Virus record (IMG/VR): IMGVR_UViG_3300036766_000359
Span: 96,001-160,000 of that record
Length of the DNA stretch: 64,000 nt
Strand: one strand, 5' to 3'
DNA from: a virus
Part shown: piece by piece, positions 8,778-63,035 of the stretch
Layout of the letters: every line of letters begins with the position of its first letter
Numbering within the stretch: the first letter of the stretch is position 1
Notes under the pieces: model-generated
Told to the model about the DNA's origin: nothing
The model's input: only the letters and a program-made list of their open reading frames with translations
Databases searched by the model: none
Program-made: the position numbers and the translations under genes

Positions 8778-8962
8778 ATGACTCCGAATCAACGTCATTG
8801 TGTAGCCAGGAACCAAAACACTCCTCCCGAAATCTTAACCAAATTATCTGGTGATACGAATCCAGGGTTCGTCAGTTTGTGGCCTCAAATCCCAACACTT
8901 CTCCCGAAACCCTAGTCCAATTTGATGCACTTGAAGCCGCTTATTCGGTGATGGATAGTTAA
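8778..8962 (+). pseudogene. Frameshifted LRV-repeat protein ending in the VMDS tag
   Basis: VARNQNTPPEILTKLSGDTNPG, then -1 frame VRQFVASNPNTSPETL...AYSVMDS*; shift in the GGG run at 8865-8867; paralog of 50203-50400. Confidence 0.75.
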
Positions 8963-8997
8963 AATGCATATTCAGGAAATAATATTAGGGGAGCCAA

Positions 8998-9225
8998 ATG
9001 AACTGGTCTAAACTATTAGAATATTCCGTGCTACTAGAATATTTCATATTATCCATTCCTGGAGTGGCTTTGGTAGCCGCCGGAGCTGCGTTGGGCGGGT
9101 TGAATGCCGCTTTCATTTTTCTGGTTCCGCTATTTGGTATTTATCTTTTAGGTCGAAATCATGGAGCAGAGGCATTGATGAAAGCTATAAAGGCTTCGAT
9201 GAAGGAACCAGTGGACCCGACCTGA
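8998..9225 (+). CDS. Small membrane protein
   Basis: 75 aa with two hydrophobic segments; GGGAG RBS. Confidence 0.65.
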   Translation: MNWSKLLEYSVLLEYFILSIPGVALVAAGAALGGLNAAFIFLVPLFGIYLLGRNHGAEALMKAIKASMKEPVDPT

Positions 9226-9262
9226 TTTATTTTATCATGAACTTGTTGAAAAATCGCAAAGT

Positions 9263-10147
9263 TTAGTGCGAATGTAACGTCTGAATCAGCCACTGGATTA
9301 GTGCAGCGATGGCAGCAATCGCTCCAACCGGGATGGTAATTTTCCTTGTGAGATTCTTCCCAGATTTTTCAGCCTGATTTTGAATTGCCAGAATTGCTCT
9401 GTTAGTAGTTTCCTTCATATGGTTTTCAAAAATCTGTATACGTTTATCATGAATGGTATCCGTCGTAATCAACATGAGAATCTCTGTCGTGTGATTTGAA
9501 AGTTCTCGTATTATTTCATTTTTAAACATATTAATCATTTGAACATTTTCAAGAGCCAGATCGGCAGCCCTGTTTGCCGCCGACAAACAAGATCTCATCT
9601 GAAGTTTTATGTTATCAATTGAGTCACGTGTTTCGGTAATTTCACCCCCGAGTCGGACTACGTGTTCCTCAGTCCAAAATCGAAGATCTGCCATCTTATG
9701 GAACAGATCGTTAAAATTATTTGTTGCTTCCATGGTAGCAGACATGGAGGTATACTCAGGACCCGATTCCGTAGTCGTATTCATATGCCCCATTTTAAAC
9801 CAGTAAAACGGATGATTAGTATCAAACAACTCCGAATACCACCAAATGAGTTTACCGTCCGAATTTTTCCACGGCCATATGAATAATTTGTGAATTTTTC
9901 CTTTTGTCTGGTCGGATATCATATCCCTTACCCAGTCATGGAACTTTTCCGGAATGACGCTAAATATAGTCATTCCTTGTAGTTGTTCGAGTTTGAACCC
10001 ATATGTGTTCAATACGAATTCATTCGCCCACACAATTTCCCCAGAGATGAGATTTACTTCTATAAATCCACGGTCGTTAAGGGACCTTCCATAGTCTCGG
10101 ATAACTTCGATCTCGTTGCTGGTTATTTGCATATGTAAAGACTTCAA
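9263..10147 (-). CDS. PAS-domain protein with coiled coil and C-terminal TM helix
   Basis: GEIVWANEFVLNTYGFKLEQLQGMTIFSVIP...WKNSDGKLIW is PAS-like; hydrophobic C-terminus. Confidence 0.7.
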   Translation of the reverse strand: MKSLHMQITSNEIEVIRDYGRSLNDRGFIEVNLISGEIVWANEFVLNTYGFKLEQLQGMTIFSVIPEKFHDWVRDMISDQTKGKIHKLFIWPWKNSDGKLIWWYSELFDTNHPFYWFKMGHMNTTTESGPEYTSMSATMEATNNFNDLFHKMADLRFWTEEHVVRLGGEITETRDSIDNIKLQMRSCLSAANRAADLALENVQMINMFKNEIIRELSNHTTEILMLITTDTIHDKRIQIFENHMKETTNRAILAIQNQAEKSGKNLTRKITIPVGAIAAIAALIQWLIQTLHSH

Positions 10148-10189
10148 ACCTTGTTACAATGAAGTTGGACAAGGATTTCATTACAACCC

Positions 10190-10549
10190 GTGGTAGGGTA
10201 TGTAATGGTAAACTTTTTACAAGTAGAATGCTCAAAATGCAAAGTGGCAAAATCCTGCCCACATTTCGGGTCTAGTCCACTGCGCATACCTGGGTATATG
10301 CCAGAGTATTGCAAAATCATAGGTGGATATGGGAGGAAACCAGTAGACCCGGCGATTCTCTCGCCGGAAAGTCTTAGTATTTCGACTCCAGGTTCGTGTC
10401 TTACGATCGCTTATATCCCGGTCGTCGACAAAGAGACAGGGCAAATCATAATGAAACTTACAAAAATTTTCGCCCCTCCTGTTCTACATGAGAGGGAAAA
10501 AATTCCGTGGAATATTGAAGAAATGTACCCTAAACCCCACAAGATTTAG
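10190..10549 (+). CDS. Hypothetical Cys-containing protein
   Basis: CSKC..SC..YC motif. Confidence 0.6.
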   Translation: MVGYVMVNFLQVECSKCKVAKSCPHFGSSPLRIPGYMPEYCKIIGGYGRKPVDPAILSPESLSISTPGSCLTIAYIPVVDKETGQIIMKLTKIFAPPVLHEREKIPWNIEEMYPKPHKI

Positions 10550-10877
10550 AAGTGCGGGACCTACGTTTCATTCGTCGAATTAGTTTATTAGTTTCCAGTA
10601 TTATTTCTTGATCAGAAATACCACATCGTATTGCTTCTTTAACGGCACCGTTAACGTCACGTTCTACTCTCTTACGAGTAGTTTCTCGACTCCAATTTCT
10701 TATCCATTCTGCAAATCTTATACGATTTTCAGGAGTTACGTTAATCACTGACCGCAACTTTCTGAACCGTCTTTTTGGTTCGAAATCCATGCCAACCGGA
10801 TTTTTTAGAATTTCGAATGGCGCACCTTTGACAGTTAGAAGGTGGTATGCTACGCCATCTAGATAAGAGTATATCAA
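10530..10877 (-). CDS. Hypothetical basic protein (start uncertain)
   Basis: ORF track; the real start may be internal (MDFEPK). Confidence 0.5.
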   Translation of the reverse strand: MIYSYLDGVAYHLLTVKGAPFEILKNPVGMDFEPKRRFRKLRSVINVTPENRIRFAEWIRNWSRETTRKRVERDVNGAVKEAIRCGISDQEIILETNKLIRRMKRRSRTSKSCGV

Positions 10878-11022
10878 ATTCTTTGTTACACTGACAACGC
10901 ACTCGAGCCCAACGTTCAGTATATGATTTTCCCGTTTTCGCGACTAAACGAACACGTTCCATAACATTTATCAGTTCGAGATTGCCAGAACTTTTACGTA
11001 AAGAATTCGGGTCAAATGTCAT
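10741..11022 (-). CDS. Zn-ribbon hypothetical protein
   Basis: RVRCQCNKEF...CQRC. Confidence 0.6.
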   Translation of the reverse strand: MTFDPNSLRKSSGNLELINVMERVRLVAKTGKSYTERWARVRCQCNKEFDILLSRWRSIPPSNCQRCAIRNSKKSGWHGFRTKKTVQKVAVSD

Positions 11023-11027
11023 AATGC

Positions 11028-11264
11028 CTACTTACGACTAGTACGAATCGCTGATTCATACATCTTGGGTAAATTTTTTACAACATTGTCCATCAGATCA
11101 TGAACGCTCATTTTTGAACCAGTAGCTCGAAATGCAATTAAAGTTTCGGCTGCAAGGATTACTTCTAGTGTGTCGTACTCTTTACTTTGATCAATTAGAA
11201 CGTGAGCCAAACTATTAGCTTTTTTCATGAAAGCTCGACGTTCTTTTGCTGTCATACTAGCCAT
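11028..11264 (-). CDS. Hypothetical protein
   Basis: 78-aa ORF in a tightly packed minus-strand run. Confidence 0.6.
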   Translation of the reverse strand: MASMTAKERRAFMKKANSLAHVLIDQSKEYDTLEVILAAETLIAFRATGSKMSVHDLMDNVVKNLPKMYESAIRTSRK

Positions 11265-11273
11265 TAAATTTCA

Positions 11274-12248
11274 TCAAGGGTGGTATTTATCAGAAGTATC
11301 CGACAAAACGTATTCATCCTTCCATTGTTTCCCATTCCAATTAGGGTCAGAGCATATTTTAACTATATCATCCATAGTTCGATATAAGTCATAGAGCGTT
11401 GAGTCATTTTCTATTACGAAGTCATACGCAGAGTCCTTGATCCTAGTTTGTTCGGTTTCTGACCGATGGTTAAACGGAGGTTTCGCAACAATAGGACGTT
11501 TAATCCGTATGATTACAGGAACCAGGTTTTCATCAGCGGCTTCACGTGCAAGTTTATGTTCATGAATATGACGAAAATCTGAAAAACACGTAATGAATTG
11601 AGAAATGGGGTCTACGGATTGTACAGGAAACAGTCCTTTTTCTTTCGAATACGCATAACCCGAGGCAATGAGGCGGTGATCTTGTATCCCTTTTCGAATC
11701 CAAGTGTCTGAGTACAAAGTATTCATTAATTCCATGTACTGCTGAAGAGACTCACGCGGAGATAACCAAAAATCAGGGTCACCTTCACGAACAAAATACC
11801 TAACAAGCCCATCTTTAGTCAGTTTATTCGGTTTTTGTGTTAAATAAGATTGAGAGTTATTTATGTCATCGTATGAATCATACAAATACCAAAGGTCTTT
11901 TTTTGCCCCTCCGATATACTGATTCCCGTTTTTGTCAACAATATCAAAAACATCATCAGGAATATTTTCTGGATGAACATTCCATCTTTGAAGATTAACA
12001 AGTTTAGTAATTTGCTTCGGGTATCTAACATCACCAGCGTTTCGAAATTCTGAAGGCCCCCACAATTGATTAGTCGTAAATCCGTAAGCGTCTTGCATAT
12101 GGCGCTTACCCGGATCAGCTAGACCAGTACGAGTTGCATTATGAAATGTAACAAGCCTGTTAGCGCATTCGTCTTTGCCTGCACTACTAAATCCCGATAT
12201 GCAAATCATTAAATGAGTCATTTCTTCCTCGTGTGTTCGTGTGTACAA
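11274..12248 (-). CDS. Deoxynucleoside monophosphate kinase (T4 gp1-like)
   Basis: ICISGFSSAGKD P-loop, LADPGKR, SPRESLQ, SDFRHIHE, HRSETE, DFVIENDST; likely start MTHLM. Confidence 0.8.
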   Translation of the reverse strand: MYTRTHEEEMTHLMICISGFSSAGKDECANRLVTFHNATRTGLADPGKRHMQDAYGFTTNQLWGPSEFRNAGDVRYPKQITKLVNLQRWNVHPENIPDDVFDIVDKNGNQYIGGAKKDLWYLYDSYDDINNSQSYLTQKPNKLTKDGLVRYFVREGDPDFWLSPRESLQQYMELMNTLYSDTWIRKGIQDHRLIASGYAYSKEKGLFPVQSVDPISQFITCFSDFRHIHEHKLAREAADENLVPVIIRIKRPIVAKPPFNHRSETEQTRIKDSAYDFVIENDSTLYDLYRTMDDIVKICSDPNWNGKQWKDEYVLSDTSDKYHP

Positions 12249-13272
12249 TGCAATAACTGTAAGTTCCTTTAGCCATATTACAGTTATGGCACAATACCTG
12301 AAATTTTGATTTTCTACGAAATTTCTCGATAAATGTGGATTTTTTGATAGTTATCCATTTATATAATGATGGACCACTTCTCGGTCCTTCATTATCAGTT
12401 TTATATGATATTTTATGATCAATGCATAGTCTATTTAATGCAGTTTCTCCACAACCGTTACAAGAACATTTGACAACCCCGTTACATACAGTTTCTAAAG
12501 CAGCCTTTTTCAGATTTTGTGATTCTATACACAGGTGTTTTAGGTAATCTTCTTTATTACAACAAATACATAAAACTTCATATTTTGACTTATCTGAATT
12601 TAACAAAATATCACGGTATAACCCGCGTGGATTGAAGTGTATACGATGTTCTTTTCCGTCATTGTTAATATGCTGAACTGTTAAAAACTTAATTTCGGTT
12701 ATATTACAACGAACACATTTTACTCCTCCAAGAGCATTGAAAACAGCCACTCGTTCAGAAACATACCTATTATTATCACATTCTTTACATGCGGAATTCA
12801 AACCGTCACTTTTCCCATTATATCGAAAAAATTCATTTGATTTCTTAATCTTTTTGCAATGCCAACATTTTTTAACGTAAGGAACAACTACATTTTGTCT
12901 TATCTTATTTTTATTGAGCAATGAATTTTTCTGGGTATTATCACAGCTTTTGCAACACCAGTTTAAACCATCTTTCCCAGAAAGATTTTTAGCAAATTGA
13001 TCACTTGACTTTGTTAGTCCGCATTTTCCACATGAGTTTTGACCTGGTAGCTCGTTTTCTTTATTTAACTTTTTACGATTTGTTCTAGAAATTAAATTGG
13101 AAGTTTTAGTACACTCTTTACAAAATCGTTGAAGACCGTCTTTTCTCGATGAACTTTTATAAAATAAATCAAAAGATTTTGTTTTCCTACATCTGCTACA
13201 TATTTTCATATTTATGCATGTGAACAAAAAATTTATAGAGTATGTTACCAGTTCCTGCCCATCCAACTTCAT
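12187..13272 (-). CDS. Free-standing multi-module HNH-like homing endonuclease
   Basis: Repeated CxxC...F.K....DGL...CKxC modules plus two LxxxH..NDG...EVLCxxCN domains; very AT-rich. Confidence 0.75.
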   Translation of the reverse strand: MKLDGQELVTYSINFLFTCINMKICSRCRKTKSFDLFYKSSSRKDGLQRFCKECTKTSNLISRTNRKKLNKENELPGQNSCGKCGLTKSSDQFAKNLSGKDGLNWCCKSCDNTQKNSLLNKNKIRQNVVVPYVKKCWHCKKIKKSNEFFRYNGKSDGLNSACKECDNNRYVSERVAVFNALGGVKCVRCNITEIKFLTVQHINNDGKEHRIHFNPRGLYRDILLNSDKSKYEVLCICCNKEDYLKHLCIESQNLKKAALETVCNGVVKCSCNGCGETALNRLCIDHKISYKTDNEGPRSGPSLYKWITIKKSTFIEKFRRKSKFQVLCHNCNMAKGTYSYCIVHTNTRGRNDSFNDLHIGI

Positions 13273-30182: not shown

Positions 30183-30443
30183 TTAGGTTTCCATGACCCG
30201 TCGAATTATTTCAGCGTTGCAATCTCGAAATTGACCACCAAGATATGATGAGAACGTAGTTTCACCACCTCCACCGGAATTTTTCATCGGAGGTGGCGGG
30301 ACTTCGTAATTCGGGTCATCGATTGGATTGTCGGGCCATCCGTTCCATACGATGCAGGCCCCACAGTCGCGACAATTCCAAATATTCCCACGATCACCAC
30401 TAATTGGGTGGCAGCTTGGTGGACGCCAATCATGTTCTTTCAT
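30183..30443 (-). CDS. HxW-CxxC-C Zn-finger family protein with VMET tag
   Basis: MKEHDW...CRDC...DCNAEIIRRVMET*. Confidence 0.75.
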   Translation of the reverse strand: MKEHDWRPPSCHPISGDRGNIWNCRDCGACIVWNGWPDNPIDDPNYEVPPPPMKNSGGGGETTFSSYLGGQFRDCNAEIIRRVMET

Positions 30444-30630
30444 GTGAATTTGACCCGAAAAGGAAAGAAAATTAGGGTAGGTAATTTGACGGGTCCCTTC
30501 CAGATTATACGTATACCAGGGGGTGGATTTTCTGATCAAAAATTTTACTTAAGTTAGCGTCCCACCGAAAGCAAGCGGGAAACGACGCTTGAATAAGCGC
30601 CATATACTTGCCCAGAAGGGTTCATTGTGG

Positions 30631-32787: not shown

Positions 32788-32919
32788 ATGCAAACAAACG
32801 AGGCACGCAACCTAGCTAAGAACCCAAACACACCACCAGCTACTTTAGAGTTACTAGCACAATTTGAAGAATGGCATGTACGCTACTTGGTAGGTCTTCT
32901 TGAAGTCATGAAATCCTGA
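32788..32919 (+). CDS. 43-aa LRV-like peptide ending in EVMKS
   Basis: My translation: MQTNEARNLAKNPNTPPATLELLAQFEEWHVRYLVGLLEVMKS*; GAGG RBS. Confidence 0.7.
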   Translation: MQTNEARNLAKNPNTPPATLELLAQFEEWHVRYLVGLLEVMKS

Positions 32920-44406: not shown

Positions 44407-44826
44407 CTACCTATCGTGGACTCCGCATATGACCCATTCAGCAAGAACTTCATCGAACATCCTCTTCCAATGTTCAAGATTGAGTTCTGACGCGTTCCCA
44501 CGGCTCATTATTTGGATGATGTTGCTTTTGATCGCGGCTAACTTTCGAAGTCGGCGGTCTTCCTTCGCGTTTTCCGAATGGTCAACATCTTTACCCAGGA
44601 CATTAACTGATTGGACAATTCCTCTCTGTCCTATCATCTGACGCGCTTGATTCCAGGCTGAGGGATCGAGAAGTTTCTTTCCGTGGTCGCAGCACAGACC
44701 AAATATGTCCTGGTACTTTCCTTCTTTTTCACGATAAGGATAAAGATTCTTATATGAGACTTCAACAAACACCGTTGACTTTTTTCCGCAGACCTTACCT
44801 GCGCTCTTAAACACTGTGCAGTTCAT
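44407..44826 (-). CDS. Hypothetical Zn-binding protein with variant tag (ICGVHDR)
   Basis: C..C...CCDH; C-terminal LNLEHW...VICGVHDR*. Confidence 0.7.
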   Translation of the reverse strand: MNCTVFKSAGKVCGKKSTVFVEVSYKNLYPYREKEGKYQDIFGLCCDHGKKLLDPSAWNQARQMIGQRGIVQSVNVLGKDVDHSENAKEDRRLRKLAAIKSNIIQIMSRGNASELNLEHWKRMFDEVLAEWVICGVHDR

Positions 44827-44835: not shown

Positions 44836-45213
44836 CTAGCTCGACATGATTGAGTCCGCGATTACCATCCCACAGTTCGGGTTTACCTCGTGCTCAGTCA
44901 TGGCCTCATTCCACGTGGATTCTCGGCTCATCTTCATCTGTCGAAAACACTTCTTGCAGATGGCTTCGACTTCGTCGTCCGCAAAGACGAGGGTAGACTT
45001 CAGTTCCCATTCATGGGTTTCATAACCCTCGGTCTTCGGAGAAGTCTCAGAATTCAGGTCGAGCCCTTTCTCCGCCAGCATGCCGTCAAGAATCGACATG
45101 AAGGGGTCTACGTCAACGTTCTCGGCCGCTTTCCCAATGAGGTGAGAAAGCGGGTCTGCTTCCTCTACAGGCTGCACTTCCGAACCGAGCATTTCATCTA
45201 GTTGGTTCTTCAT
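44836..45213 (-). CDS. HxW-CxxC-C Zn-finger family protein with IMSS tag
   Basis: THEW...CKKC...NCGMVIADSIMSS*. Confidence 0.75.
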   Translation of the reverse strand: MKNQLDEMLGSEVQPVEEADPLSHLIGKAAENVDVDPFMSILDGMLAEKGLDLNSETSPKTEGYETHEWELKSTLVFADDEVEAICKKCFRQMKMSRESTWNEAMTEHEVNPNCGMVIADSIMSS

Positions 45214-45398
45214 CACGACTCCATAATTTTCAGGACCATTTGAGCTTGACAATCTGCCAGAATACCGATCTTGCGATAAAAGCTAGCACCGCGTGGTTTC
45301 ATGGGACCATAATAATGGGTTTTACAATTCTTACATATCCACGCTGCAGTCTTCGCCTGGAAATTGAAATAAACGTACTCCCATTCATGATTCTTCAT
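45213..45398 (-). CDS. HxW-CxxC-C Zn-finger family protein with IMES tag
   Basis: NHEW...CKNC...DCQAQMVLKIMES*. Confidence 0.8.
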   Translation of the reverse strand: MKNHEWEYVYFNFQAKTAAWICKNCKTHYYGPMKPRGASFYRKIGILADCQAQMVLKIMES

Positions 45399-45601
45399 GA
45401 TTCCATCACTCCAGCAACCAGCATGGCGTTACAGTCTGCCGCATCTGGTGAAGTTTCAAAGAGGTTAAATGGCACAGCATTTTTGGTTTTATGGTCAAGT
45501 ACGAGACGAATCCCGCAACGCTGACACTGGTATACGTAAGCGTCCCCCTCGTGGTACGGACCGCTAGGTTTTATGTCCGGGAATGAATGCGAGTGTTTCA
45601 C
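45395..45601 (-). CDS. HxF-CxxC-C Zn-finger family protein with VMES tag
   Basis: SHSF...CQRC...DCNAMLVAGVMES*. Confidence 0.8.
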   Translation of the reverse strand: MKHSHSFPDIKPSGPYHEGDAYVYQCQRCGIRLVLDHKTKNAVPFNLFETSPDAADCNAMLVAGVMES

Positions 45602-46137: not shown

Positions 46138-46794
46138 ATGGCACGAAAATCAGACGCAAAGACTTCTAGCTACGACAGAATCTTCGACGCGATCACCCGG
46201 TCTCCTCGGTGGAGGTCGTACATGGAGTCAATCCGTACCGACTTCGAGAAAGTCGGCATACTTGAGTACACCTTTAACCACCACTCAGTATACGAGAATG
46301 CAACAAACACCAACTATGTTGTTGAGGCAAGCTTTCACATCGGACCTGTCTTGGATGTGAAAGTTTCCTTCGACGAAGACTCCGCCCTGTTCGCTGATGC
46401 TGTCAGCGCAAACCAGATTGACTGGTCGATAAATAAGTTCTTTGCCGACGAAAAAAGGATGGACGGGGTCCTCGAGGGTCTCTTCGGTACCAAAGGGTAC
46501 CCGACGTTCAACTGCACACTCGACAACGCCAAGAAGAAGTGGTCTGACTTCGCCAAGAAACGAATCTCTGACGAACTTCATCCACTGAAGGATGCGTTCC
46601 ATTTGCACGTCTCCGAACAGAAGGAAAGCATCATGGCTTCTGAAGGATTCATTAGGGACAAGCAACGCTACTACGACCTTCTCGTCATAAACGACATTCG
46701 GGAAGTGGTCCAGAAGTTCTACAAGAAGGTCAGTCCTGAAGTCATCAAGGAAGCGTTGGACAACGTTATCGTCCACGACATATGTGACTCTTAG
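46138..46794 (+). CDS. Hypothetical protein with variant tag (VHDICDS)
   Basis: ...KVSPEVIKEALDNVIVHDICDS*. Confidence 0.8.
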   Translation: MARKSDAKTSSYDRIFDAITRSPRWRSYMESIRTDFEKVGILEYTFNHHSVYENATNTNYVVEASFHIGPVLDVKVSFDEDSALFADAVSANQIDWSINKFFADEKRMDGVLEGLFGTKGYPTFNCTLDNAKKKWSDFAKKRISDELHPLKDAFHLHVSEQKESIMASEGFIRDKQRYYDLLVINDIREVVQKFYKKVSPEVIKEALDNVIVHDICDS

Positions 46795-47440: not shown

Positions 47441-47466
47441 CGTAAGTCTGCGAGTTGTCGGCGTAC
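47441..47466 (+). promoter_or_regulatory. Phage promoter motif
   Basis: cgtaagt-N15-gtac. Confidence 0.8.
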
Positions 47467-47508
47467 GGGTGGGGAGGCAAGCGCGGTGCTTGCCACGGAG
47501 GTGACGAT

Positions 47509-48615
47509 ATGCTGACCGACGTTTTCGAGATCGAACAGGCAACCTACAAGCGGGTACTCTCGTTCAACATCCGCTCTGGCGGGAACGTGATCATCCTGGG
47601 CCAAGCTGGCACAGGCAAGACGGAGATCGCGCAAGCGGTCTGTGGAGAAGAAGGGTTTGAGTACATCTACTTGAACCTGTCCGTTCTGGAGGCACCTGAC
47701 CTCGTCGGTTTGCCGATCATCGCGGCAAACAACACTGTTGACTACGCCAGCCCGAAGTTCCTTCCTCGGATGGACATCACCCCGAAGCCGATCGTCCTGA
47801 TTGTCGATGAGATCGACAAAGCCAAGCCCGAGCTTCAGAACCCCTTGCTGGAGCTTTTCCAGTTCCATTCCATCAACGGGACCAAGCTCAACATCAAGGC
47901 GATCATCGCCACGGGCAATCTGCCTGACGAGGGGGCGTTCAGCCAGCCCATCTCACACGCCCTCACCAACCGGTGCAAGGTGTACCGCCTGACGCACTCC
48001 TTCGAGGCGTGGCGCGAGTGGGCTCAAAACGACTCGCTCAACGCGCTGGTCATTGGCTTCCTGAGCAAGAACCAGGAGTACCTCAGCCGAGCGGCGGTCG
48101 AGGGAGATCCCACGGCGTACTGTCGCTGCAGCCCGCGCTCTTGGGCAATGGCCGCCAACGACCTGGACAAGACGTCCAGCCAAGACACGGTGGAGTTTCA
48201 GACACTCCTCGTCAGCGGTCGCGTCGGGATGGGCGCTGCGGTGAAATTCCGGGTGTGGCTCGACCACTATCGCCACGTGGAGCCCATCATCGAGAAGCTC
48301 GTCGAGAAGGGCGAGAAGCCTTCCATCAACGACATGTCGATCGATCGACAGCTCGTTTGCGCAATTGCCGCTGTGGCAGCCGTCGCCAACGAATGCAAGA
48401 GGGAGCTGAAAGGCGAGGAGCGCGTGAAGCAGGGCGAGCGCGTGACGAAGATTGCCAAGAACGTCTTCAGTTGGGTGAAGCTCCTCCCATCTGAGTTCCA
48501 GATTGGCGCGGTCAAGTCGGCACTCAACATGAAGATGATCCAGGAATTCAAGCTGACCAACGTTCAGGAAGTGATGGACACCTATCTCACGGTACGTAAG
48601 GCCATGAAGGACTGA
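47509..48615 (+). CDS. MoxR-like AAA+ ATPase
   Basis: GQAGTGKT Walker A, IVDEIDK Walker B, IATGN sensor 1, ALTNR Arg finger, SPRSW; GGAGG RBS. Confidence 0.9.
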   Translation: MLTDVFEIEQATYKRVLSFNIRSGGNVIILGQAGTGKTEIAQAVCGEEGFEYIYLNLSVLEAPDLVGLPIIAANNTVDYASPKFLPRMDITPKPIVLIVDEIDKAKPELQNPLLELFQFHSINGTKLNIKAIIATGNLPDEGAFSQPISHALTNRCKVYRLTHSFEAWREWAQNDSLNALVIGFLSKNQEYLSRAAVEGDPTAYCRCSPRSWAMAANDLDKTSSQDTVEFQTLLVSGRVGMGAAVKFRVWLDHYRHVEPIIEKLVEKGEKPSINDMSIDRQLVCAIAAVAAVANECKRELKGEERVKQGERVTKIAKNVFSWVKLLPSEFQIGAVKSALNMKMIQEFKLTNVQEVMDTYLTVRKAMKD

Positions 48616-51054: not shown

Positions 51055-52521
51055 ATGGCAACAGCAGACCGATCGATCGCAGCAACCATCACCCGTCTCA
51101 AGGATCCAGAGAACGTGGCGAGCAGCCCTCGCCAGTACATGGAACTTTGCGACAAAATCTCGTCCTGCATGACGAGGCTTTTCCAGTTCCCCAAGAACGG
51201 GGGCAACCCGTTCTTGTTCGCCCTCACCGGCCCGAAGCCACACTTCCTCGTCAGGAAGCTTCACGGACAGGATATCAAGACAGCGGCCACCGACGGAAAG
51301 AATTTCTACTGGAACCCTGAGTTTCTTGAGTCGATGAGCCCTCAAGAGATCCAGACGGTCATGTCCCATGAGAGCTACCACGTTCTCTTTTTCCACTGCT
51401 CGAAGGACCGGGCGGCTGGGAAGAAGCCGCATGAATGGAATATCGCCGTGGACTACATCGTCAACGGCGTCATTGAGCATGACCACGAAAAGAGCGGACG
51501 ATCGGCTTCTTTCAAGCTGTGGGGCGGCGCGATCGGATCGCCAATCTCGTTCGACGATTACATCGCCTGGATTGCGGGCAAGATTGATGATCTGCCGCAA
51601 CACGGTTGCTTCGCAGACCCGACCATGCACGGTCGGTCTCCGGAGTCCATCTACGGCGATATCATCCAGGCCCAACTCAGCAGCCCACGTCGTTGCAAAG
51701 AGAACGCGGGTGGCTGTGGAGCACTGTCCATCGACCCGAAGACCGGGGTCTCTGTAATCGATCAGCCCTGGGACGCGGACGCCTGCCAGAAGTGCGGCGC
51801 AAAGCCCAACCAGGGAACCGGCCCTGGGTCTCTCGACTCACATGTTCCCACCGACCTGACAAAGGATGAGGTCATGGGGGAGATGATGAAGGCTGCAGAG
51901 CAAGCCGCAGCGACTGGTCGTGGAACGGCCCCTGCTGAAATAGAGGCAGCCCTGGCTGAACTCAAGGCTCCGCAGCTCCGCCCGAGCGATATCATCCGAC
52001 AGGCATTCTTTCGCAAGGCAATCGACACCGGCAACAAGAACGACTGGAAGCGCCTTCGACGCCGCCAGCTCGCAATGACCCCTCGCCAGTTCCTCCCACG
52101 CAAGCACGAACATCTGCCCAAATGGGTGGTCTGCCTTGACACGTCTGGCTCAATGTCCGACAAGGACATTGCAAACGGCCTCAAGGAGATGCAGGCCGTC
52201 CCGCAGAATTCAGAGGGATGGGTGATCCCTTGCGATGCGGTCCCATACTGGGACCGGAAGACCCTCGTGCGGAACTCATCCGACCTCAAGCGGACCAAGG
52301 TCGTTGGACGTGGCGGCACGGTCTTCGACCAATTCTTCGCGGAGCTTCCAGAGAAGATTGGGAGGGACCTTGACATTGTGGTCATCATCAGTGATGGTGA
52401 TTGCGGGACTATTCCGATGAATCTCCACCCGCGTTGCGACGTGCTCTGGATTATCACGAACAAGCGTGACTTCAAGCCCACGTTCGGACGGGTCGTTCAA
52501 CTCAGTCCGTCTCGCGCCTAA
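51055..52521 (+). CDS. Metallopeptidase-like plus VWA domain protein (DUF2201-type partner of MoxR AAA)
   Basis: TAATDG, HESYH (HExxH), WNIAVD, DTSGS MIDAS, GRGGT.F, ISDG. Confidence 0.9.
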   Translation: MATADRSIAATITRLKDPENVASSPRQYMELCDKISSCMTRLFQFPKNGGNPFLFALTGPKPHFLVRKLHGQDIKTAATDGKNFYWNPEFLESMSPQEIQTVMSHESYHVLFFHCSKDRAAGKKPHEWNIAVDYIVNGVIEHDHEKSGRSASFKLWGGAIGSPISFDDYIAWIAGKIDDLPQHGCFADPTMHGRSPESIYGDIIQAQLSSPRRCKENAGGCGALSIDPKTGVSVIDQPWDADACQKCGAKPNQGTGPGSLDSHVPTDLTKDEVMGEMMKAAEQAAATGRGTAPAEIEAALAELKAPQLRPSDIIRQAFFRKAIDTGNKNDWKRLRRRQLAMTPRQFLPRKHEHLPKWVVCLDTSGSMSDKDIANGLKEMQAVPQNSEGWVIPCDAVPYWDRKTLVRNSSDLKRTKVVGRGGTVFDQFFAELPEKIGRDLDIVVIISDGDCGTIPMNLHPRCDVLWIITNKRDFKPTFGRVVQLSPSRA

Positions 52522-53811: not shown

Positions 53812-53813
53812 AT

Positions 53814-54314
53814 TCATTCTATGTGTGGGCATTGACCATATGCTCCCTTCGCTAGGTTACAGTTATGGCACAACACTTGGAAACCAGGCGGATATTTGTT
53901 CGCTCGAAGCCATGAATAGATACCGAGACCATTAGTTCCGATCTGTCTTCTATGCTCTCTACCGCCGCCTTCAATATGGTCAATTGCAAGAAATTTCGGC
54001 TCATTAGTAGAACACCCGCCAAGACACATGCAATGGATGTTTCCTCCGCAATATGCTCGAAAAGCAGCCATGCGCATACTTTGTCGATATTCCCTAGCTT
54101 TCATGTATCTGATCTCTTTTGTGCATTCTCTCCAGTTTTTTGCTTTTCGAGCATATTCAGCTGGGTTATCTCGACGTCGTTTCTGATGATATTCACGTTG
54201 ACATAATTTACAGCGACTTTTATGACCATCTGAACACCTGGTATCCAAACCGAATTCATGAATGTCCTTCGGACCACAGATAATACATTGTTTTTCCATC
54301 ACCTCACCTCTCAT
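53814..54314 (-). CDS. Free-standing HNH-like homing endonuclease
   Basis: CIIC...DG..SRCKLC; LAIDHIEGGG...FQVLCHNCN.AK. Confidence 0.85.
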   Translation of the reverse strand: MRGEVMEKQCIICGPKDIHEFGLDTRCSDGHKSRCKLCQREYHQKRRRDNPAEYARKAKNWRECTKEIRYMKAREYRQSMRMAAFRAYCGGNIHCMCLGGCSTNEPKFLAIDHIEGGGREHRRQIGTNGLGIYSWLRANKYPPGFQVLCHNCNLAKGAYGQCPHIE

Positions 54315-54337
54315 TGAAAAGTAATGAAAGATTCATC

Positions 54338-54694
54338 ATGGCAAAGAAAAATGAATTGACTGATATGTGGGCTATTGTTCAGGTCATGGAGGTTTCCAAC
54401 GCCCTGAAGGGCAAGGTTTTCAGCATCACCGGCCACCTCGGGCTGAAACGACCCGAGATCGTTCAAATCATCGAGACGGCTGGTGGTCGATTTGAGGAAC
54501 GGCCTCGATGGGGAGTGAATTTTCTCATTACGAACTCGGACTGGAATAAGGGGTCGACCGTTGACCCCAAGAAGTCGTCGAAGTACATTGATGCAGAGCG
54601 CAATCGCATCAAGATCATCTCAGAGGACCAATTCTGTCAAATGGTCATCGATGGCGGAGAAACGATGGCTGACAACATCTCATCTGGTCGATGA
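54338..54694 (+). CDS. Stand-alone BRCT-domain protein
   Basis: LKGKVFSITGHL...IIETAGG...NFLITN...SSKY..A....IKIISEDQF. Confidence 0.88.
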   Translation: MAKKNELTDMWAIVQVMEVSNALKGKVFSITGHLGLKRPEIVQIIETAGGRFEERPRWGVNFLITNSDWNKGSTVDPKKSSKYIDAERNRIKIISEDQFCQMVIDGGETMADNISSGR

Positions 54695-55188: not shown

Positions 55189-55321
55189 GAAACCCGTTGT
55201 CCAGCTATGCGAGTGGTTCTTTTTATGTAAGCGCCCCGCTACGACCATTGAGTCGCATCCGGTGTTAGGTAAAGTACCGATCTGTGCGCGTTGTGCCGCG
55301 TGGCTACGGAGCAACGAATAA
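55178..55321 (+). CDS. 47-aa Zn-binding peptide
   Basis: My translation: CEWFFLC...HPVLGKVPICARC. Confidence 0.65.
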   Translation: MANKKPVVQLCEWFFLCKRPATTIESHPVLGKVPICARCAAWLRSNE

Positions 55322-55550
55322 GGCGGTGATAGCCCGTCCTGCCATTCCCCGGCCCCGTCCTGCCTCCCGGCTGCACGGGGCCGATTCGTGCCGGGTCGAC
55401 GACCGACTGACAACCGAGAACCGCCGAGGTTATTACTGGTCACAACTTCCAGGGTCAGAGCAATCATGGTTCACCACTTTCGGCAGTCCCCGACCCATAT
55501 GGGCTCATCTCTGGGCTAAACTTGCAGTTCGTGAAGTGATGGAGTCTTGA
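55284..55550 (+). CDS. Small protein with VMES tag (start uncertain)
   Basis: ...WAKLAVREVMES*. Confidence 0.6.
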   Translation: MRVVPRGYGATNKAVIARPAIPRPRPASRLHGADSCRVDDRLTTENRRGYYWSQLPGSEQSWFTTFGSPRPIWAHLWAKLAVREVMES

Positions 55551-57304: not shown

Positions 57305-58090
57305 ATGAGCAATATGAAGAATCTTTTCAATCTGTTCGACCAGGAACCAAGTTTGGTAGAAATCACCGAGGCACAGAACGCTGTGCTGGAGAAGGATTTC
57401 GAGCGACAGGAGCAACTGCCGCTGGTTGTTGAAGCAGCCCCCGCTGCCATCTTTGCGATGCCCCCGGTCGCCTACATCAAGGCAGGTCGCCGCCACAAGT
57501 TGGTATTCGAGGGAGTTTGCACCAATTGTGCTCACTGCTCACAACCCCTCTCGGACGCCGTGTCGATCGAACGCGGGATCGGACCGGTTTGCTCGAAAAA
57601 GGGATACCTGGAAGATCCCAAGGTGTCGGACGAAATCCAGGCGATGATCGACTTGGCCGAGTTTCCTTCCTTGGTGACTTTCCTCGTCGAGCGGTATAAG
57701 CCGCAGGGCGTCCGTTCGATGATGAATGCCCTGGTGAAGATCTGTTCTCTCAACCGTCGTTCGCCAGTACATCCGGCATGCTGCGATGCCATCGAGTCGC
57801 TCGGATACACCCGACTTGCAAGCACTCTTCGTGAGAGCATCGCGGTCGTGGAAATTTCCGTGCTTTCAGCTTCTGACGACCGACTGAAAGTATGGGTCAA
57901 GAAGAGCGAGTGGAATTGGCGTTGGACGACCGAAATTCGACAGATCCTTGGGGCGGGGTACTCAACGCAACACAAGGGAACCTTAGTTCCAGCTGCCCGG
58001 AAACGGGAGTTGTGGAACCTGATCAAGAAGCATTATGCAGGCCTCTGTTGCAAGACTCCAACCGGAACTGTGAAGATTCCAGCGGTTTAA
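57305..58090 (+). CDS. Protein with DUF6011-like Zn motif and C-terminal HARP-like region
   Basis: CAHCSQPLSDAVSIERGIGPVC; GGAGG RBS. Confidence 0.8.
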   Translation: MSNMKNLFNLFDQEPSLVEITEAQNAVLEKDFERQEQLPLVVEAAPAAIFAMPPVAYIKAGRRHKLVFEGVCTNCAHCSQPLSDAVSIERGIGPVCSKKGYLEDPKVSDEIQAMIDLAEFPSLVTFLVERYKPQGVRSMMNALVKICSLNRRSPVHPACCDAIESLGYTRLASTLRESIAVVEISVLSASDDRLKVWVKKSEWNWRWTTEIRQILGAGYSTQHKGTLVPAARKRELWNLIKKHYAGLCCKTPTGTVKIPAV

Positions 58091-59173: not shown

Positions 59174-59234
59174 GCGGTGGAGGCGGCAAACATCGTGATG
59201 GGCTTCTCTCCCTGGAAATCTTGTAAGGAGCCAA

Positions 59235-59837
59235 ATGACATTAGTTAAAGGTCGTGCATTGGAAGAACTCTTCGCTTTGGCATATGCCAATGCCCCAAAG
59301 AAATCAGCGCTCATCGCAAACGTTGGGAGTTTACCAGGAGTCCTGTGTTCTCACGGGTCTAATGCCTTTGTTGCGGGATTTGCAAAGTGTTACCAGATGA
59401 CCTCTGATGAGCAACTACATATGGTTGAGTTCATATCAGTTGCTACCGAACATTCTTTTCTTCTTCAAGACATTCAACCTTTCCAAAGTGCTCTTGAGGA
59501 CGTAAAGAACAGAACCTACGCACAGGTCCCGACGCCGAGGAAAGTGATGGTCAAAATGGTTCACCAAAGGATGATGAGTTTGCTTAAGGCAGTTCATGGT
59601 CGTAACGAACTATGTGCGCAGTACCCGAATAGTTACAAGAATACCTCTGCAGTTCCAACGCTCTGTTCTAAACAGAGTTTCGTTGACTGGGTGGAACACA
59701 ACAGAAAACAAAACTACAACGATAAAATAGTCATCAACGCTGACATCATCAGCATCCTTACGCGTGATGATATTCTTGACGATGTTTACCTAGAAGCATG
59801 GGATCTCGTTCAGGTTCGAGAAATAATGGAATCGTAA
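59235..59837 (+). CDS. Hypothetical protein with IMES tag
   Basis: AAGGAG RBS; ...AWDLVQVREIMES*. Confidence 0.8.
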   Translation: MTLVKGRALEELFALAYANAPKKSALIANVGSLPGVLCSHGSNAFVAGFAKCYQMTSDEQLHMVEFISVATEHSFLLQDIQPFQSALEDVKNRTYAQVPTPRKVMVKMVHQRMMSLLKAVHGRNELCAQYPNSYKNTSAVPTLCSKQSFVDWVEHNRKQNYNDKIVINADIISILTRDDILDDVYLEAWDLVQVREIMES

Positions 59838-59880
59838 ATCTCGCTCTTGGTGATAACTCCCTGGACAGCAGCTCGAACTG

Positions 59881-59906
59881 CGTAAATTCGCGTGTCGCGT
59901 GCGTAC
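59881..59906 (+). promoter_or_regulatory. Phage promoter motif
   Basis: cgtaaat-N15-gtac then GGAGGTG. Confidence 0.85.
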
Positions 59907-59925
59907 ACGTGATGGAGGTGACGAC

Positions 59926-61107
59926 ATGCCACAATTGATCGAAGGAAGTCCAGTTTTCATTCAGGGCTCTGGTGCTAAGCCATATGAACTCAAGAACACT
60001 GGCGGGATACATAGCTGTAGCTGCCCCGCTTGGAGAAACCAGAGTGTTCACATCGACCGCCGCACATGCAAGCATCTGAAAAAGCATTGTGGGGATGCGG
60101 CTGAAATGGCGCGTGTTGGTACAAGTCCGCTGAACGCGGCGGTCCTGGGGCCTGCTCTGGTTCAAGGACCGAAGCCCGTTCCCGCCGTCACACACACGCG
60201 CATGCAAGCACATGAGGTTGGAATCGATGGTCGCGAGTTCACCGCTGACGCTGAGTACGCTGATACGGTAGTGCAGCGTGCCCTAGCTGACGGACGCAAA
60301 CTCCGTCAAGACGAAAAGGCCAAGCTTTTTGGACCGCCAGTCCTCCTCGCGCACAAGTTCGAGGACTTCGAGGACCTGGACCCGACGGGGTGGTGGTGTT
60401 CCGAGAAGCTCGATGGCGTTCGGGCCTACTGGAACGGCAAAGACTTCATTTCACGCCAGGGTAACATTTTCCACGCCCCGGAATGGTTCAAGGCCGCACT
60501 GCCGAAGGATGAAGTCCTGGACGGCGAACTCTGGATTGGACGCCAGATGTTCCAGAAGACCATCTCGGTCGTCAAGCGTCTTGATTGGGGCGACGGCGCA
60601 AAGCTCGTCAAGTATATTATTTTCGACGTGCCATCTCGCAAAGATGAAGCGTTCGAGTCTCGCCTGAATGCGGCATGCAATCACGCAGTTGCAGCCAACG
60701 TGCCGCACGTTCAGGCACACCCGCACTATTTGGTTCAGTCACGCACGAGCCTGCTCTCGGACCTCAAGAAGATTGAGGCGGCAGGCGGCGAAGGCCTGAT
60801 GATCCGCAAGCCCATGTCTCTGTACGAGATCGGGCGGTCATCGACGTTGCTGAAGGTCAAGCCGTTCAAGGACGATGAAGGTGTCGTCGTTGCACACAAG
60901 CCTGGTAAGGGCAGACACAAAGGCGTACTCGGTGGCGTCACGATTCGGTGGAACTCAGTTGAGTTCGACCTCGGGACCGGGTTCACAGACGAGGACCGTC
61001 GAAATCCTCCTCCCATCGGAGCCACAGTCACCTTCAGGTACACCGAGCTGACTGAAGACGGGAAGCCAAAATGCACCGCGTTTATCGCAGTCAGGGAGGG
61101 TTACTAA
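59926..61107 (+). CDS. ATP-dependent DNA ligase with N-terminal SWIM Zn finger
   Basis: SCSCPAW...CKHL; SEKLDGVRAYW, LDGELW, GEGLMIR, LLKVK, FDLGTGF, TFRY.ELT.DG.P. Confidence 0.93.
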   Translation: MPQLIEGSPVFIQGSGAKPYELKNTGGIHSCSCPAWRNQSVHIDRRTCKHLKKHCGDAAEMARVGTSPLNAAVLGPALVQGPKPVPAVTHTRMQAHEVGIDGREFTADAEYADTVVQRALADGRKLRQDEKAKLFGPPVLLAHKFEDFEDLDPTGWWCSEKLDGVRAYWNGKDFISRQGNIFHAPEWFKAALPKDEVLDGELWIGRQMFQKTISVVKRLDWGDGAKLVKYIIFDVPSRKDEAFESRLNAACNHAVAANVPHVQAHPHYLVQSRTSLLSDLKKIEAAGGEGLMIRKPMSLYEIGRSSTLLKVKPFKDDEGVVVAHKPGKGRHKGVLGGVTIRWNSVEFDLGTGFTDEDRRNPPPIGATVTFRYTELTEDGKPKCTAFIAVREGY

Positions 61108-61278
61108 ATGAGTAAACCAGCCAAGAAACCGATGTTCAAGTGGACCGACAAAGCGAAAAAAGATGCAATTGAAAAATTCCATCGAGAAGCTGAGAGGTTA
61201 CTCAGTGGCGGGGTTTCAATCGAGGACCTAAGGAGTGCATGCGACATGGCAATAGCAGCGGATGTCACCCGCTCCTAA
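61108..61278 (+). CDS. 56-aa helical protein, variant tag (AADVTRS)
   Basis: My translation: MSKPAKKPMFKWTDKAKKDA...; paralog at 61830. Confidence 0.8.
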   Translation: MSKPAKKPMFKWTDKAKKDAIEKFHREAERLLSGGVSIEDLRSACDMAIAADVTRS

Positions 61279-61316
61279 AAATATACACCATATAAACGAA
61301 AATACTGTCAGACATC

Positions 61317-61514
61317 ATGACGAAGACACGTGAAAAGAAGTGGCTGATTGTTTGCGATGACAGTGGTCATCACCGGGCGATGTCAAAGTCATGGCTTGAA
61401 CTGAACGGACTCGGACTCGGCACTTTTCATGTTGTTGATGAAGCTCATCATTATCTAGGAGCATGTAGGCTGGCTGACAAGTTGAATGAAGTATCGAACG
61501 TCATGGGGTCATAG
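61317..61514 (+). CDS. W..V.D..GHH family protein with VMGS tag
   Basis: WLIVCDDSGHHR...ADKLNEVSNVMGS*. Confidence 0.8.
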   Translation: MTKTREKKWLIVCDDSGHHRAMSKSWLELNGLGLGTFHVVDEAHHYLGACRLADKLNEVSNVMGS

Positions 61515-61718
61515 ATGACAAGTCGTAATGATGATTGGTTCGTAGTTGTTGATCCTGTCGGTCATCATCGCCCATGGGGTCCCCCTGAACTCCTTGAGTG
61601 GAACGGGTGCGCCAATATACCAGTCGGGTGGAGTGTGGTTGACAGGGGGGTGTCATTGAAAGAGGCACGCAAGAGGGCTGATGAACTCAATTACGTAGAA
61701 GAAATCATGAAGTCATGA
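61515..61718 (+). CDS. W..V.D..GHH family protein with IMKS tag
   Basis: WFVVVDPVGHHR...ADELNYVEEIMKS*. Confidence 0.8.
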   Translation: MTSRNDDWFVVVDPVGHHRPWGPPELLEWNGCANIPVGWSVVDRGVSLKEARKRADELNYVEEIMKS

Positions 61719-61829
61719 CCAGCACCAAATAAAAACGAGGCCGGTGCTGGTAAGGTATAGTCCCAGTGTACTTTGGGTAGCATGAAATTCGAGTGGTGGG
61801 TTTTAAACACGTCTAGCTAAGAGGAACCA

Positions 61830-62003
61830 ATGAGCAAGCCAGTCAAGAAGTCAACATTCAAGTGGTCGGATAAAGCCAAGCAGGACGCGCTAGGCAAGTT
61901 TGCTCGAGAAGCCGAACGGCTCCTCAACGGTGGACTCTCGCTCGATGACATGAAGAAGGCATGCGATAGTGCTGCTTCGAATTTGTCGGCACCGAAGAGT
62001 TGA
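61830..62003 (+). CDS. 57-aa helical protein (paralog of 61108)
   Basis: My translation: MSKPVKKSTFKWSDKAKQDA...REAERLLNGG; GAGG RBS. Confidence 0.8.
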   Translation: MSKPVKKSTFKWSDKAKQDALGKFAREAERLLNGGLSLDDMKKACDSAASNLSAPKS

Positions 62004-62214
62004 TCTGTGGATGGGTACTATGCCATACATGGCTTTGGTATGGCATAGTATTTGTTCCTCATTCGTAAATCAGGAAAACTCGAACGTATTGATTCTGCAG
62101 GGAACGGTTTACAGCGAGGCAACACCTTTGAAAACCAAAAGGTTGGTGTTGACCCGGTAGGTTTACTAGGCTCGTTTGTAGTGGGTTCGATTCCTTACCC
62201 CTGTGTCAATTTAA

Positions 62215-62427
62215 ATGAAGACTGCAGCAGGCACGGTCGAGATGTACGAAGAACGCATGCCACACAACGAGTGGCGTGTAGTCAGGGACAGCCTAGGCGA
62301 TCACCATGTGATGTCCCGTCCTCCTACTCCTTATGGATGGCATATACTTTTTACCAATCTTTCACACTTGAAGGCAAGCGAAGAGTGCAAAAAACTTAAC
62401 CTCATCAAAGAAGTTATGGAGTCGTGA
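62215..62427 (+). CDS. W..V.D..G.HH family protein with VMES tag
   Basis: WRVVRDSLGDHH...KKLNLIKEVMES*. Confidence 0.8.
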   Translation: MKTAAGTVEMYEERMPHNEWRVVRDSLGDHHVMSRPPTPYGWHILFTNLSHLKASEECKKLNLIKEVMES

Positions 62428-62675
62428 ACGAGGTCAAAGTTGGGGATCGAGTAACCCGTCAAAAATTTCTCGACGACGGCACTTGGCAATGGCGCGGTGA
62501 TGACTGCCTAGACGAAAGCCCGCTTTTGCATGGCGTGGTCACTCGCGTATTCATAGAGTCAAGGACTCGATTCAATAAAAACGCTCGAAAGCTTCTCCCG
62601 ATGTGCGAAGTTTCGTGGTCTGAAACAGGAGAAACTTGGGCTTATTTCTTTCACGGAGTGACACGCGACATGTAA
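62424..62675 (+). CDS. Small SH3-like hypothetical protein
   Basis: VKVGDRV...GVVTRV...CEVSW; GTGA-coupled. Confidence 0.65.
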   Translation: MNEVKVGDRVTRQKFLDDGTWQWRGDDCLDESPLLHGVVTRVFIESRTRFNKNARKLLPMCEVSWSETGETWAYFFHGVTRDM

Positions 62676-62696
62676 ACTCGATCGATGCGTCCGTAC
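62671..62696 (+). promoter_or_regulatory. Phage promoter motif
   Basis: tgtaaac-N15-gtac then GGTGGAGG. Confidence 0.75.
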
Positions 62697-63035
62697 TGGT
62701 GGTGGAGGCAAGAATGGACACAAAGTATCAGAAAATCACGAGATTTGCCAATGACGGTTAGGTGCATCGTGGCGGTTAGATATCTCGTATGCCGACATCC
62801 GGATTTCCCAATCTTTCATGACTCCACAGGACCTCAGTTTGAGATGCGTAGTCTATACGACGATGAAGCTTATTCGCAAGAAATCGACCAAATGGGTAAA
62901 TCAGTAACCGTTTTCAAAAGAAACGGTGTCACAGTTGACACTGCTGGCGAATTTTGCGGAGAATATGCTAACGCGAGAGAAGCGCGTGTCGTCATTGATA
63001 GACTTAATCAAGTTTCCAGGGTCATGGACTCATGA
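62685..63035 (+). CDS. Hypothetical protein with VMDS tag (start uncertain)
   Basis: ...REARVVIDRLNQVSRVMDS*. Confidence 0.7.
   Translation: MRPYWWWRQEWTQSIRKSRDLPMTVRCIVAVRYLVCRHPDFPIFHDSTGPQFEMRSLYDDEAYSQEIDQMGKSVTVFKRNGVTVDTAGEFCGEYANAREARVVIDRLNQVSRVMDS

Follow-up and report, generated by a model that had tools for sequence, protein, structure and literature searches.

A fixed-register C-terminal motif shared by unrelated accessory proteins in a clade of huge uncultivated phages

We analyzed a 64,000-nucleotide stretch of viral DNA (hereafter the window), which corresponds to bases 96001-160000 of the 192,972-bp IMG/VR virus record IMGVR_UViG_3300036766_000359, and found that many of the small proteins it encodes share the C-terminal ending hydrophobic-x-x-[VI]-[MH]-x-S, referred to below as the tag. 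The same class of ending recurs on unrelated proteins in related phages, and we consider that the tag is, on balance, probably a portable short linear motif serving as an end-on docking or address label for one shared, co-evolving, putative reader. The record is linear, has a CheckV completeness of 45%, and comes from a much larger phage. Because it is a fragment, all tag counts given here are lower bounds. It represents a tailed phage, with a terminase, a portal-like domain, and a tail fibre, and also encodes PurZ-like and ThyX genes, two ligases, a MoxR-type ATPase, and a zincin-vWA protein. Positions preceded by W refer to the window and are continued past its end where needed, genome positions refer to the record, and the window phage is designated G000.

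Tag counts were made over the whole record, using a crude set of 267 called genes plus seven tagged open reading frames (ORFs) missed by the crude caller. The first-pass annotation had listed 28 tagged ends, and all 28 of the heptamers translate as written, immediately 5' of a stop codon and at the positions and on the strands reported. The end at W8962, however, is the tail of a frameshifted LRV-repeat gene rather than of a free-standing ORF, and the ends at W44407 (VHDR), W46794 (ICDS), and W61278 (VTRS) are degenerate, the first two having orthologues with standard tags in relatives. Across the record, about 40 ORFs have a tagged end. Thirty-eight of the 40 fall among the 107 genes of W30000-W82000, including 23 among the 37 genes of W44400-W63100, and only two occur among the remaining 165 genes of the record. 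The strict form [VI]-M-x-S constitutes the C-terminal end of 17 of the 267 proteins, against 0.06 ends expected from its 12 internal occurrences in 55,088 positions. The comparison of terminal with internal copies, which had been proposed as a check, came out strongly in favor of protein ends. Internal copies of the full heptad number only six in the record, one of them located ten residues before the end of the ATPase.

The constraint was also proposed to act on the protein rather than on the DNA, and codon usage bears this out. The serine at position -1 is specified by six kinds of codon (TCA, TCG, AGT, TCT, TCC, and AGC), eight codons are used at position -4, Val and Ile are written in many ways, and all three stop codons occur among the 40 tagged genes (TGA 20, TAG 12, TAA 8). 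The sequences 3' of the tagged genes have nothing in common. About half of the junctions contain TGA, often as TCATGA overlapping the next start codon, and this overlap accounts for some of the codon choice (the last Ser is TCA in 13 of the 40 genes) but not for the motif.

The positional preferences of the tag were determined from 136 tagged proteins pooled from the window phage and five relatives. The most informative positions were -4 (V 78%, I 15%), -3 (M 66%, H 10%), and -7 (V, A, or I), and positions outside the search pattern were informative as well, with S at -1 (56%), E or D at -2 (53%), and L at -10 (32%). Untagged proteins showed none of these preferences. The tag is predicted to form an amphipathic helix of about 12 residues with hydrophobic residues at -10, -7, -4 (V or I), and -3 (M, less often H or T), followed by a small or acidic x-S dipeptide. 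The spacing of -10, -7, and -4/-3 would place these residues on a single helix face.

The distance from this helix face to the free end is nearly invariant. Exactly two residues follow [VI][MHQ] in 24 proteins of G000 and in 17, 7, 28, and 19 proteins of the related loci L006-L009, respectively; distances of 0, 1, 3, and 4 residues gave 0-1 proteins each and a distance of five gave four in G000, with a chance level of 0.1-1.1 per distance. An exhaustive profile search with the zinc-ribbon family, one of the families that carry the tag, yielded 82 small cluster representatives, and the tails of 80 of these were in the exact register. The exact two-residue register across genomes and cluster representatives is indirect evidence that the free C-terminus belongs to the recognized epitope, and it supports, to that extent, the earlier suggestion that a free end is part of what is recognized.

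Database relatives of the tagged proteins were near-identical only, with the exception of one 1.6-kb contig of about 70% DNA identity, on which two orthologues both kept the tag (NVMES and DVMDS). Homologues of the zincin-vWA protein, by contrast, formed a graded series and lay on contigs as long as 436 kb. The sequence surrounding nine of these homologues, together with further loci from genome and metagenome collections, served as the relatives' loci; all tag-bearing loci were reached via DUF2201, the vWA-like domain of this protein, which constitutes an ascertainment bias. Within the 21-kb loci around the zincin-vWA gene, tagged genes accounted for 17-19 of 36, 9 of 32, 28 of 47, and 19 of 36 genes in L006-L009. 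Orthologues of window proteins with only 23-41% body identity kept the motif class at the very end. A higher conservation of the last seven residues relative to the body was also considered and was rejected (pooled identity 34% vs 32%). Only the pattern positions are held and the rest of the tail drifts like the body, which is the behavior of a short linear motif.

Tags were present where the zincin-vWA protein was at least 39% identical to that of the window and were absent or ambiguous at 37% or less. As a baseline, 66 distant loci had tag-like ends in 1.5% of 3,731 ORFs, and 21 unrelated viral loci, used as a negative control, had 5 among about 1,240 ORFs (0.4%). An alignment-based scan with the ATPase retrieved only distant AAA proteins, the loci of which served as negative controls. 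GenBank phages gave no near match, and no close relatives were found in IMG/VR with one tagged protein or DUF2201 as query. From its distribution, the tag marks a whole clade of huge uncultivated phages.

Lineages of this clade differ in the form of the tag, and we refer to these forms as dialects. V-M-x-S occurs in the window phage, L006-L009, and L058; V-[L/I/V]-x-[E/A/S] in L010 and L060; V-[L/M]-E-S in L039; [I/V]-[I/V]-x-Q in L036; V-H-x-L in L037; and I-M-x-[S/Q] in L041. Each dialect is consistent over dozens of unrelated proteins within a genome. Chi-square tests of locus versus residue gave p ~1e-22 at -3 and ~1e-25 at -1, values that overstate independence because the proteins within a genome are partly paralogous. 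In the DUF2201 tree, L010 is nested among M-type lineages, so that its dialect switch is derived and concerted. GC content, which spans 0.39 to 0.67 among the loci, does not explain the dialects, since L008 (0.64) keeps M and L010 (0.61) does not. That a dialect is common to dozens of unrelated proteins per genome points to one shared partner.

We further analyzed the protein bodies that carry the tag. When the last 16 residues were removed before BLAST clustering, the 40 tagged bodies formed 29 clusters, and the earlier estimate of at least four unrelated families was therefore far too low. The description of the proteins as otherwise unrelated applies to most bodies, but there are also several paralogue families, including about ten zinc ribbons and seven LRV/HEAT-like repeat proteins. 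The latter are the only tagged family recognized by Pfam: six members exceeded the cut-off of the LRV model (PF01816; tandem repeats of about 26 residues), with a best E-value of 7e-38, and LRV repeat hits in the record numbered 38. One LRV member was modeled as an all-helical solenoid with a predicted local distance difference test score (pLDDT) of 90. Its last helix has 17 residues, compared with 7-9 for the others, so that the tag in this model projects past the repeat core; confidence drops at the end. The small zinc ribbons follow the pattern H-x-W ... CxxCG ... [D/N]-C, after which the tail begins at once. One such member (W45395-45601) gave a poor model (pLDDT 57) in which three strands are followed by a terminal helix of low confidence and which says little on tail packing. 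The further bodies comprise a pair of proteins of 200-233 residues and a few small families. The solenoid and the zinc ribbon differ in fold, and the tag is therefore borne by two unrelated folds at a minimum.

Taken together, the constant spacing from the tail to the free end, the unrelated folds, the few positions under selection, and the dialects are consistent with a docking label that is read end-on by one co-evolving partner. The motif has been placed on many unrelated, fast-evolving accessory proteins of the huge-phage clade, and the reader would grip the free carboxylate, two residues past the -3 residue, end-on. One shared partner would handle all tagged proteins as a class, with a pocket that differs between lineages. 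We infer a single reader for all of them.

The candidates for this reader include proteins encoded within the tagged arrays. Four slow-evolving untagged proteins lie inside the arrays in nearly all relatives, namely the MoxR-type ATPase, the zincin-vWA protein, a small BRCT protein, and a DUF6011 protein. The ATPase and zincin-vWA genes are separated by five tagged genes, and their products are 48-73% identical to their orthologues. In an alignment of 51 zincin-vWA homologues, both HExxH and the metal ion-dependent adhesion site (MIDAS; DxSxS..T..D) were invariant, and the record encodes a MoxR-clade ATPase (Pfam AAA/AAA_5) together with a vWA partner with intact MIDAS (DUF2201_N + DUF2201). 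It has been proposed that vWA domains capture a substrate peptide for MoxR remodeling, and zincin peptidases have been reported alongside small, fast-diverging proteins with conserved C-terminal peptides (PMC7159879). NorD docks through its extreme C-terminus on the MoxR ring formed by NorQ, and the two no longer co-purify once the last two residues of NorD are deleted (PMC13036017). Jumbo phages have been noted to encode a MoxR protein paired with a metallopeptidase-vWA protein, for which a function in virion assembly was proposed (PMC7824862).

The MoxR AAA+ ATPase and zincin-vWA pair is the leading reader candidate, an assignment that we hold tentatively and rate well short of an even chance. 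In this view, the tail would first be captured by the two proteins, after which the client would be remodeled, trimmed, or cleared. A host protein, or a product of the missing half of the genome, is equally plausible as the reader. The ATPase is itself a candidate for either reader or client. Its own end, V-R-K-A-M-K-D, resembles a weak tag in register, and its last 17 residues contain two tag-like heptads, EVMDT and VRKAMKD. When the ATPase tails of 13 lineages were compared, those of the two aliphatic-dialect lineages were RKVLKDPS and RNVIKGK. As in five orthologues, the ATPase probably starts at W47509 (MLTDVFEI) rather than at the called W47455. A search of the record fragment for ClpP, PDZ, and S41 peptidase domains returned none that was convincing. 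A search of the same fragment, about 45% complete, for TPR domains returned one TPR_12 match, which scored 14.9 bits, below the cut-off, and lay in a 1107-residue glycosyltransferase-like protein. In its widest form, the proposal would have the clade run its own proteome-addressing system, with the label on a third or more of the accessory proteins (probably >100 per full genome), a MoxR/zincin-vWA reader that remodels, trims, or clears its clients, and label and reader changing together; we regard this extended form as doubtful, slightly more so than the assignment of the pair as reader.

Several observations weigh against a docking label with a single co-evolving reader, and against this pair in particular. 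The low completeness of the record and the partial paralogy behind the dialect statistics have been mentioned above. The ATPase tail is RQAFKD alongside V-M tags in L009 and RKVTKD alongside V-H-x-L tags in L037, and it is off register in five lineages. The MoxR/zincin-vWA pair long predates the tag and is far more widespread. It occurs without tags in N4-like and other phage homologues with about 25% DUF2201 identity, which were also the only DUF2201 matches in GenBank, and the many loci with the pair and no tags indicate that the pair functions without them. A comparison of the conserved DUF2201 columns of 51 sequences with the dialects gave no pattern, and L010 alters only two of these columns.

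Known systems offer partial parallels to a docking label. In NorQD (PMC13036017), a free hydrophobic extreme C-terminus is read by an ATPase ring, and the loss of two residues abolishes binding, an end-on logic that matches the two-residue register of the tag. However, the docked end there belongs to the vWA partner itself, whereas the tags sit on dozens of putative clients and the phage vWA protein has another conserved terminal sequence, FGRVxxLxPxR. In vWA-MoxR conflict systems (Kaur et al. 2020, PMC7159879), small diverging precursors carry FxSxx-COOH, RxD, or acidic C-terminal peptides. The FxSxx-COOH type resembles the phage arrays in combining small, fast-diverging proteins that have a conserved C-terminal peptide with zincin and MoxR-vWA neighbors. 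It differs in the motif itself, in having one precursor per system rather than tens of folded clients per genome of up to 300 residues, and in being a bacterial defence locus rather than a phage gene set. No radical-SAM/SPASM partner of the FxSxx type appeared in searches of the record.

Two further systems resemble the tag in logic only. Recognition of the EEVD ends of Hsp70 and Hsp90 by TPR carboxylate clamps includes the terminal carboxylate. Hundreds of unrelated, fast-evolving Dot/Icm effectors share a loose C-terminal signal that is hydrophobic at -3/-4 with acidic or small residues around it; for the tag, no secretion system is involved. In the literature on this ending and on common C-terminal motifs in jumbo phages, we found no description of the tag. 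A shared terminal address peptide is known in principle (degrons, cargo, secretion signals), and this instance, its scale, and its dialects appear to be undescribed.

Two rivals to a docking label seem improbable to about the same degree. The first is a virion-loading signal, by which tagged proteins would be docked in the procapsid, packaged, and injected with the DNA, in the way of encapsulin cargo or the internal proteins of T4. Cargo loading is known to work in this manner, with many unrelated small proteins sharing a terminal peptide that sends them to one destination. The structural half of the record contains one tagged ORF (genome 45815-46477, end AEKIMES), and LRV repeats, present in one tagged family, also occur in large proteins of that half. 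The T4 capsid targeting sequence, however, is N-terminal and is removed by the head protease at L/I-x-E, whereas the tag is at the extreme C-terminus. The encapsulin cargo peptide is C-terminal like the tag, but it has a GSLxIGSLK-like motif and stands beside an HK97-fold shell gene. The tagged genes are far more numerous than in either system, and 38 of 40 are located outside the structural module, beside ligases, the ATPase, and nucleotide enzymes. Heads loaded with a third or more of the accessory genes would be unprecedented. No link to a head protease or scaffold was found, the head-protease (Peptidase_S77) search being uninformative as its control also gave no match.

A promoter-like motif of the accessory arrays bears on the same question. 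The motif G[TGC]ARRY-N15-GTAY had 58 hits in the record, compared with 17.4 in shuffled sequences. Of these hits, 52 lie at genome 120-170 kb (about W24000-74000) and only 3 in the 96-kb structural half, and the motif often ends 2-17 nucleotides 5' of a start codon, making it a candidate promoter class of the arrays. Its scarcity in the structural half suggests that the arrays form a separate expression class, which by inference argues against loading into the head.

The second of these rivals, just as hard to favor, is a C-terminal degron through which a host AAA+ protease (ClpXP, Lon, or FtsH) would receive the early accessory proteins and remove them at a set time. It would share with ssrA-type C-degrons a strict dependence on the free end and a short C-terminal peptide by which unrelated proteins are directed to a single machine. 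A short life is plausible for the clients, which are small, fast-evolving, and probably host-directed, and the dialects could follow different hosts, given the GC range of the loci. Against this, the acidic or polar x-S end, mostly E, D, N, or S followed by S, is unlike the known bacterial C-degrons, which are non-polar (LAA). The ssrA peptide is added by transfer-messenger RNA and is non-polar, whereas the phage tag is gene-encoded, longer, helical, and divided into dialects. A conserved 12-residue helix exceeds what a degron needs, and no ClpP, S41 peptidase, or PDZ domain was found encoded in the fragment.

Less likely still is an explanation with no common reader, in which a structural or self-association helix (capping or oligomerization) was acquired repeatedly by small proteins of the clade. 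It agrees with the predicted helical and amphipathic nature of the tail, with the zinc-ribbon tail beginning directly after the last Cys ligand, and with the LRV tail extending a repeat helix. However, a packing or coiled-coil helix need not end two residues past a hydrophobic pair, whereas the observed register is near absolute, and concerted changes at -3 and -1 across unrelated folds in a genome would be unexpected if each tail packed individually. Model confidence is also low in the zinc-ribbon tail and falls at the end of the LRV model. A DNA- or RNA-level signal at gene ends (a ribosome-binding site, restart signal, recombination site, or part of a promoter) is already close to refuted, because, despite the TCA and TGA preferences and the many TCATGA junctions among tightly packed genes, the codons, stops, and downstream sequences vary as described above, the dialects follow amino-acid class rather than bases, and the tag is also found on genes of both strands and on the last genes of runs.

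A docking label would have practical consequences. Huge phages encode hundreds of small orphan genes without known function, and a label common to at least a third of the genes in the accessory arrays would provide a handle on all of them at once, sorting the dark proteome into tagged and untagged classes. Identifying one reader would tell where the tagged proteins go or when they are removed. The lineage dialects amount to a natural specificity experiment (swapping tag and reader), and a portable, end-dependent tag with its matching reader could be put to use as an orthogonal tool, either for docking or to control turnover.

The tagged genes of the window and the conserved untagged genes among them are listed in Table 1.

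Table 1. Tagged and conserved untagged genes in the window (W coordinates; aa, amino acids)
Feature	Position	Strand	C-terminal end and other evidence
Frameshifted LRV-repeat gene	8760..8962	+	Last 27 codons W8879-8962, end ...ALEAAYSVMDS; three-frame translation
Tagged, 118 aa, zinc-ribbon family	30183..30539	-	IRRVMET
Tagged, 43 aa, one LRV repeat + tail	32788..32919	+	LLEVMKS
Tagged, 121 aa	35268..35633	+	IDRVMQS
Tagged, 284 aa	39599..40453	-	VQKIMES
Tagged, 139 aa, degenerate	44407..44826	-	ICGVHDR; orthologue ends SVMTE, QVMKE, EVQEA
Tagged, zinc-ribbon C-terminal half	44836..45252	-	ADSIMSS; orthologue ends ADVMDS, QDVMKE
Tagged zinc ribbon, 61 aa	45213..45398	-	VLKIMES
Tagged zinc ribbon, 68 aa (folded member)	45395..45601	-	VAGVMES
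Tagged, 218 aa, degenerate	46138..46794	+	VHDICDS; orthologue ends EDIMEA, ADVMEA, QDVLDS
Tagged zinc ribbon, 66 aa	47196..47396	+	VKRIMAT
MoxR-type AAA+ ATPase, not counted as tagged (A at -4)	47455..48615	+	Pfam AAA, AAA_5
Tagged, 172 aa	48902..49420	+	IQKIMES
Tagged zinc ribbon, 62 aa	49417..49605	+	LRVIHES
Tagged, 114 aa	49595..49939	+	IFQTHES; orthologue end VIQVHES
Tagged LRV-repeat protein, 126 aa	50020..50400	+	AYDVMES
Tagged, 140 aa	50414..50836	+	IFEIMNA
Zincin metallopeptidase (DUF2201_N) fused to vWA-like domain (DUF2201), untagged	51055..52521	+	Pfam
Tagged, 105 aa	52934..53251	+	VNDVMDS
Tagged, 134 aa	53310..53714	+	VSDVMLS
Small BRCT-domain protein, untagged, conserved array core	54314..54694	+	Pfam BRCT; orthologues 41-74% identical
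Tagged ORF, 88 aa, start uncertain	55284..55550	+	VREVMES
Tagged, 256 aa	55679..56449	+	IHQVMTS; tag kept in 4/4 orthologues, body identity 25-30%
Tagged, 49 aa	56446..56595	+	VSQTMES
Tagged, 215 aa	56607..57254	+	VSSVMNS
DUF6011 protein, untagged, conserved array core	57305..58090	+	Pfam; orthologues 46-57% identical
Tagged, 200 aa	59235..59837	+	VREIMES; paralogue W67554-68255
Tagged, 56 aa, weak tag	61108..61278	+	AADVTRS
Tagged, 65 aa	61317..61514	+	VSNVMGS
Tagged, 67 aa	61515..61718	+	VEEIMKS
Tagged, 70 aa	62215..62427	+	IKEVMES
Tagged, 116 aa	62685..63035	+	VSRVMDS

Some of these genes call for comment. In the frameshifted LRV gene, the LRV hits at genome 104793-104923 fall in two frames. 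The translation is ...NQNTPPEILTKLSGDTNPGF in the upstream frame and, in the downstream frame, VRQFVASNPNTSPETLVQFDALEAAYSVMDS followed by the stop codon. The gene may be a pseudogene or reflect a sequencing error. The protein at W44836-45252 probably has its true start at W45213, giving 125 residues as in P0007. Past the window, three tandem zinc-ribbon paralogues at L001:2642-3545 (window-equivalent 66642-67548) share the identical end CEEARLLN[V/I/M]CDQIHSS, and their 3' ends are 85-97% identical at the DNA level, indicating recent duplication.

Two large ORFs have composite matches. In the 820-residue ORF at W2673-5135 (+ strand), residues 456-818 match phage PurZ/adenylosuccinate synthetase and the matches of residues 31-464 are to regions that carry helicase, terminase, or polymerase annotations in unrelated phages, a pattern that would be expected for an inserted mobile element such as an intein. 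Outside the window, genome 50604-55109 (- strand) encodes a 1501-residue protein that is portal-like at residues 1229-1385 and also weakly matches the anaerobic ribonucleotide reductase large subunit; it is either an unusual fusion or a mis-joined ORF.

Sequence composition and coding character also vary along the window. The GC content is 0.36-0.46 in W1-28000, compared with 0.48-0.53 in the accessory arrays. W33000-44000 shows weak coding potential with the crude caller and many overlapping ORFs on both strands, and in this region the promoter-like motif is densely clustered, also on both strands.

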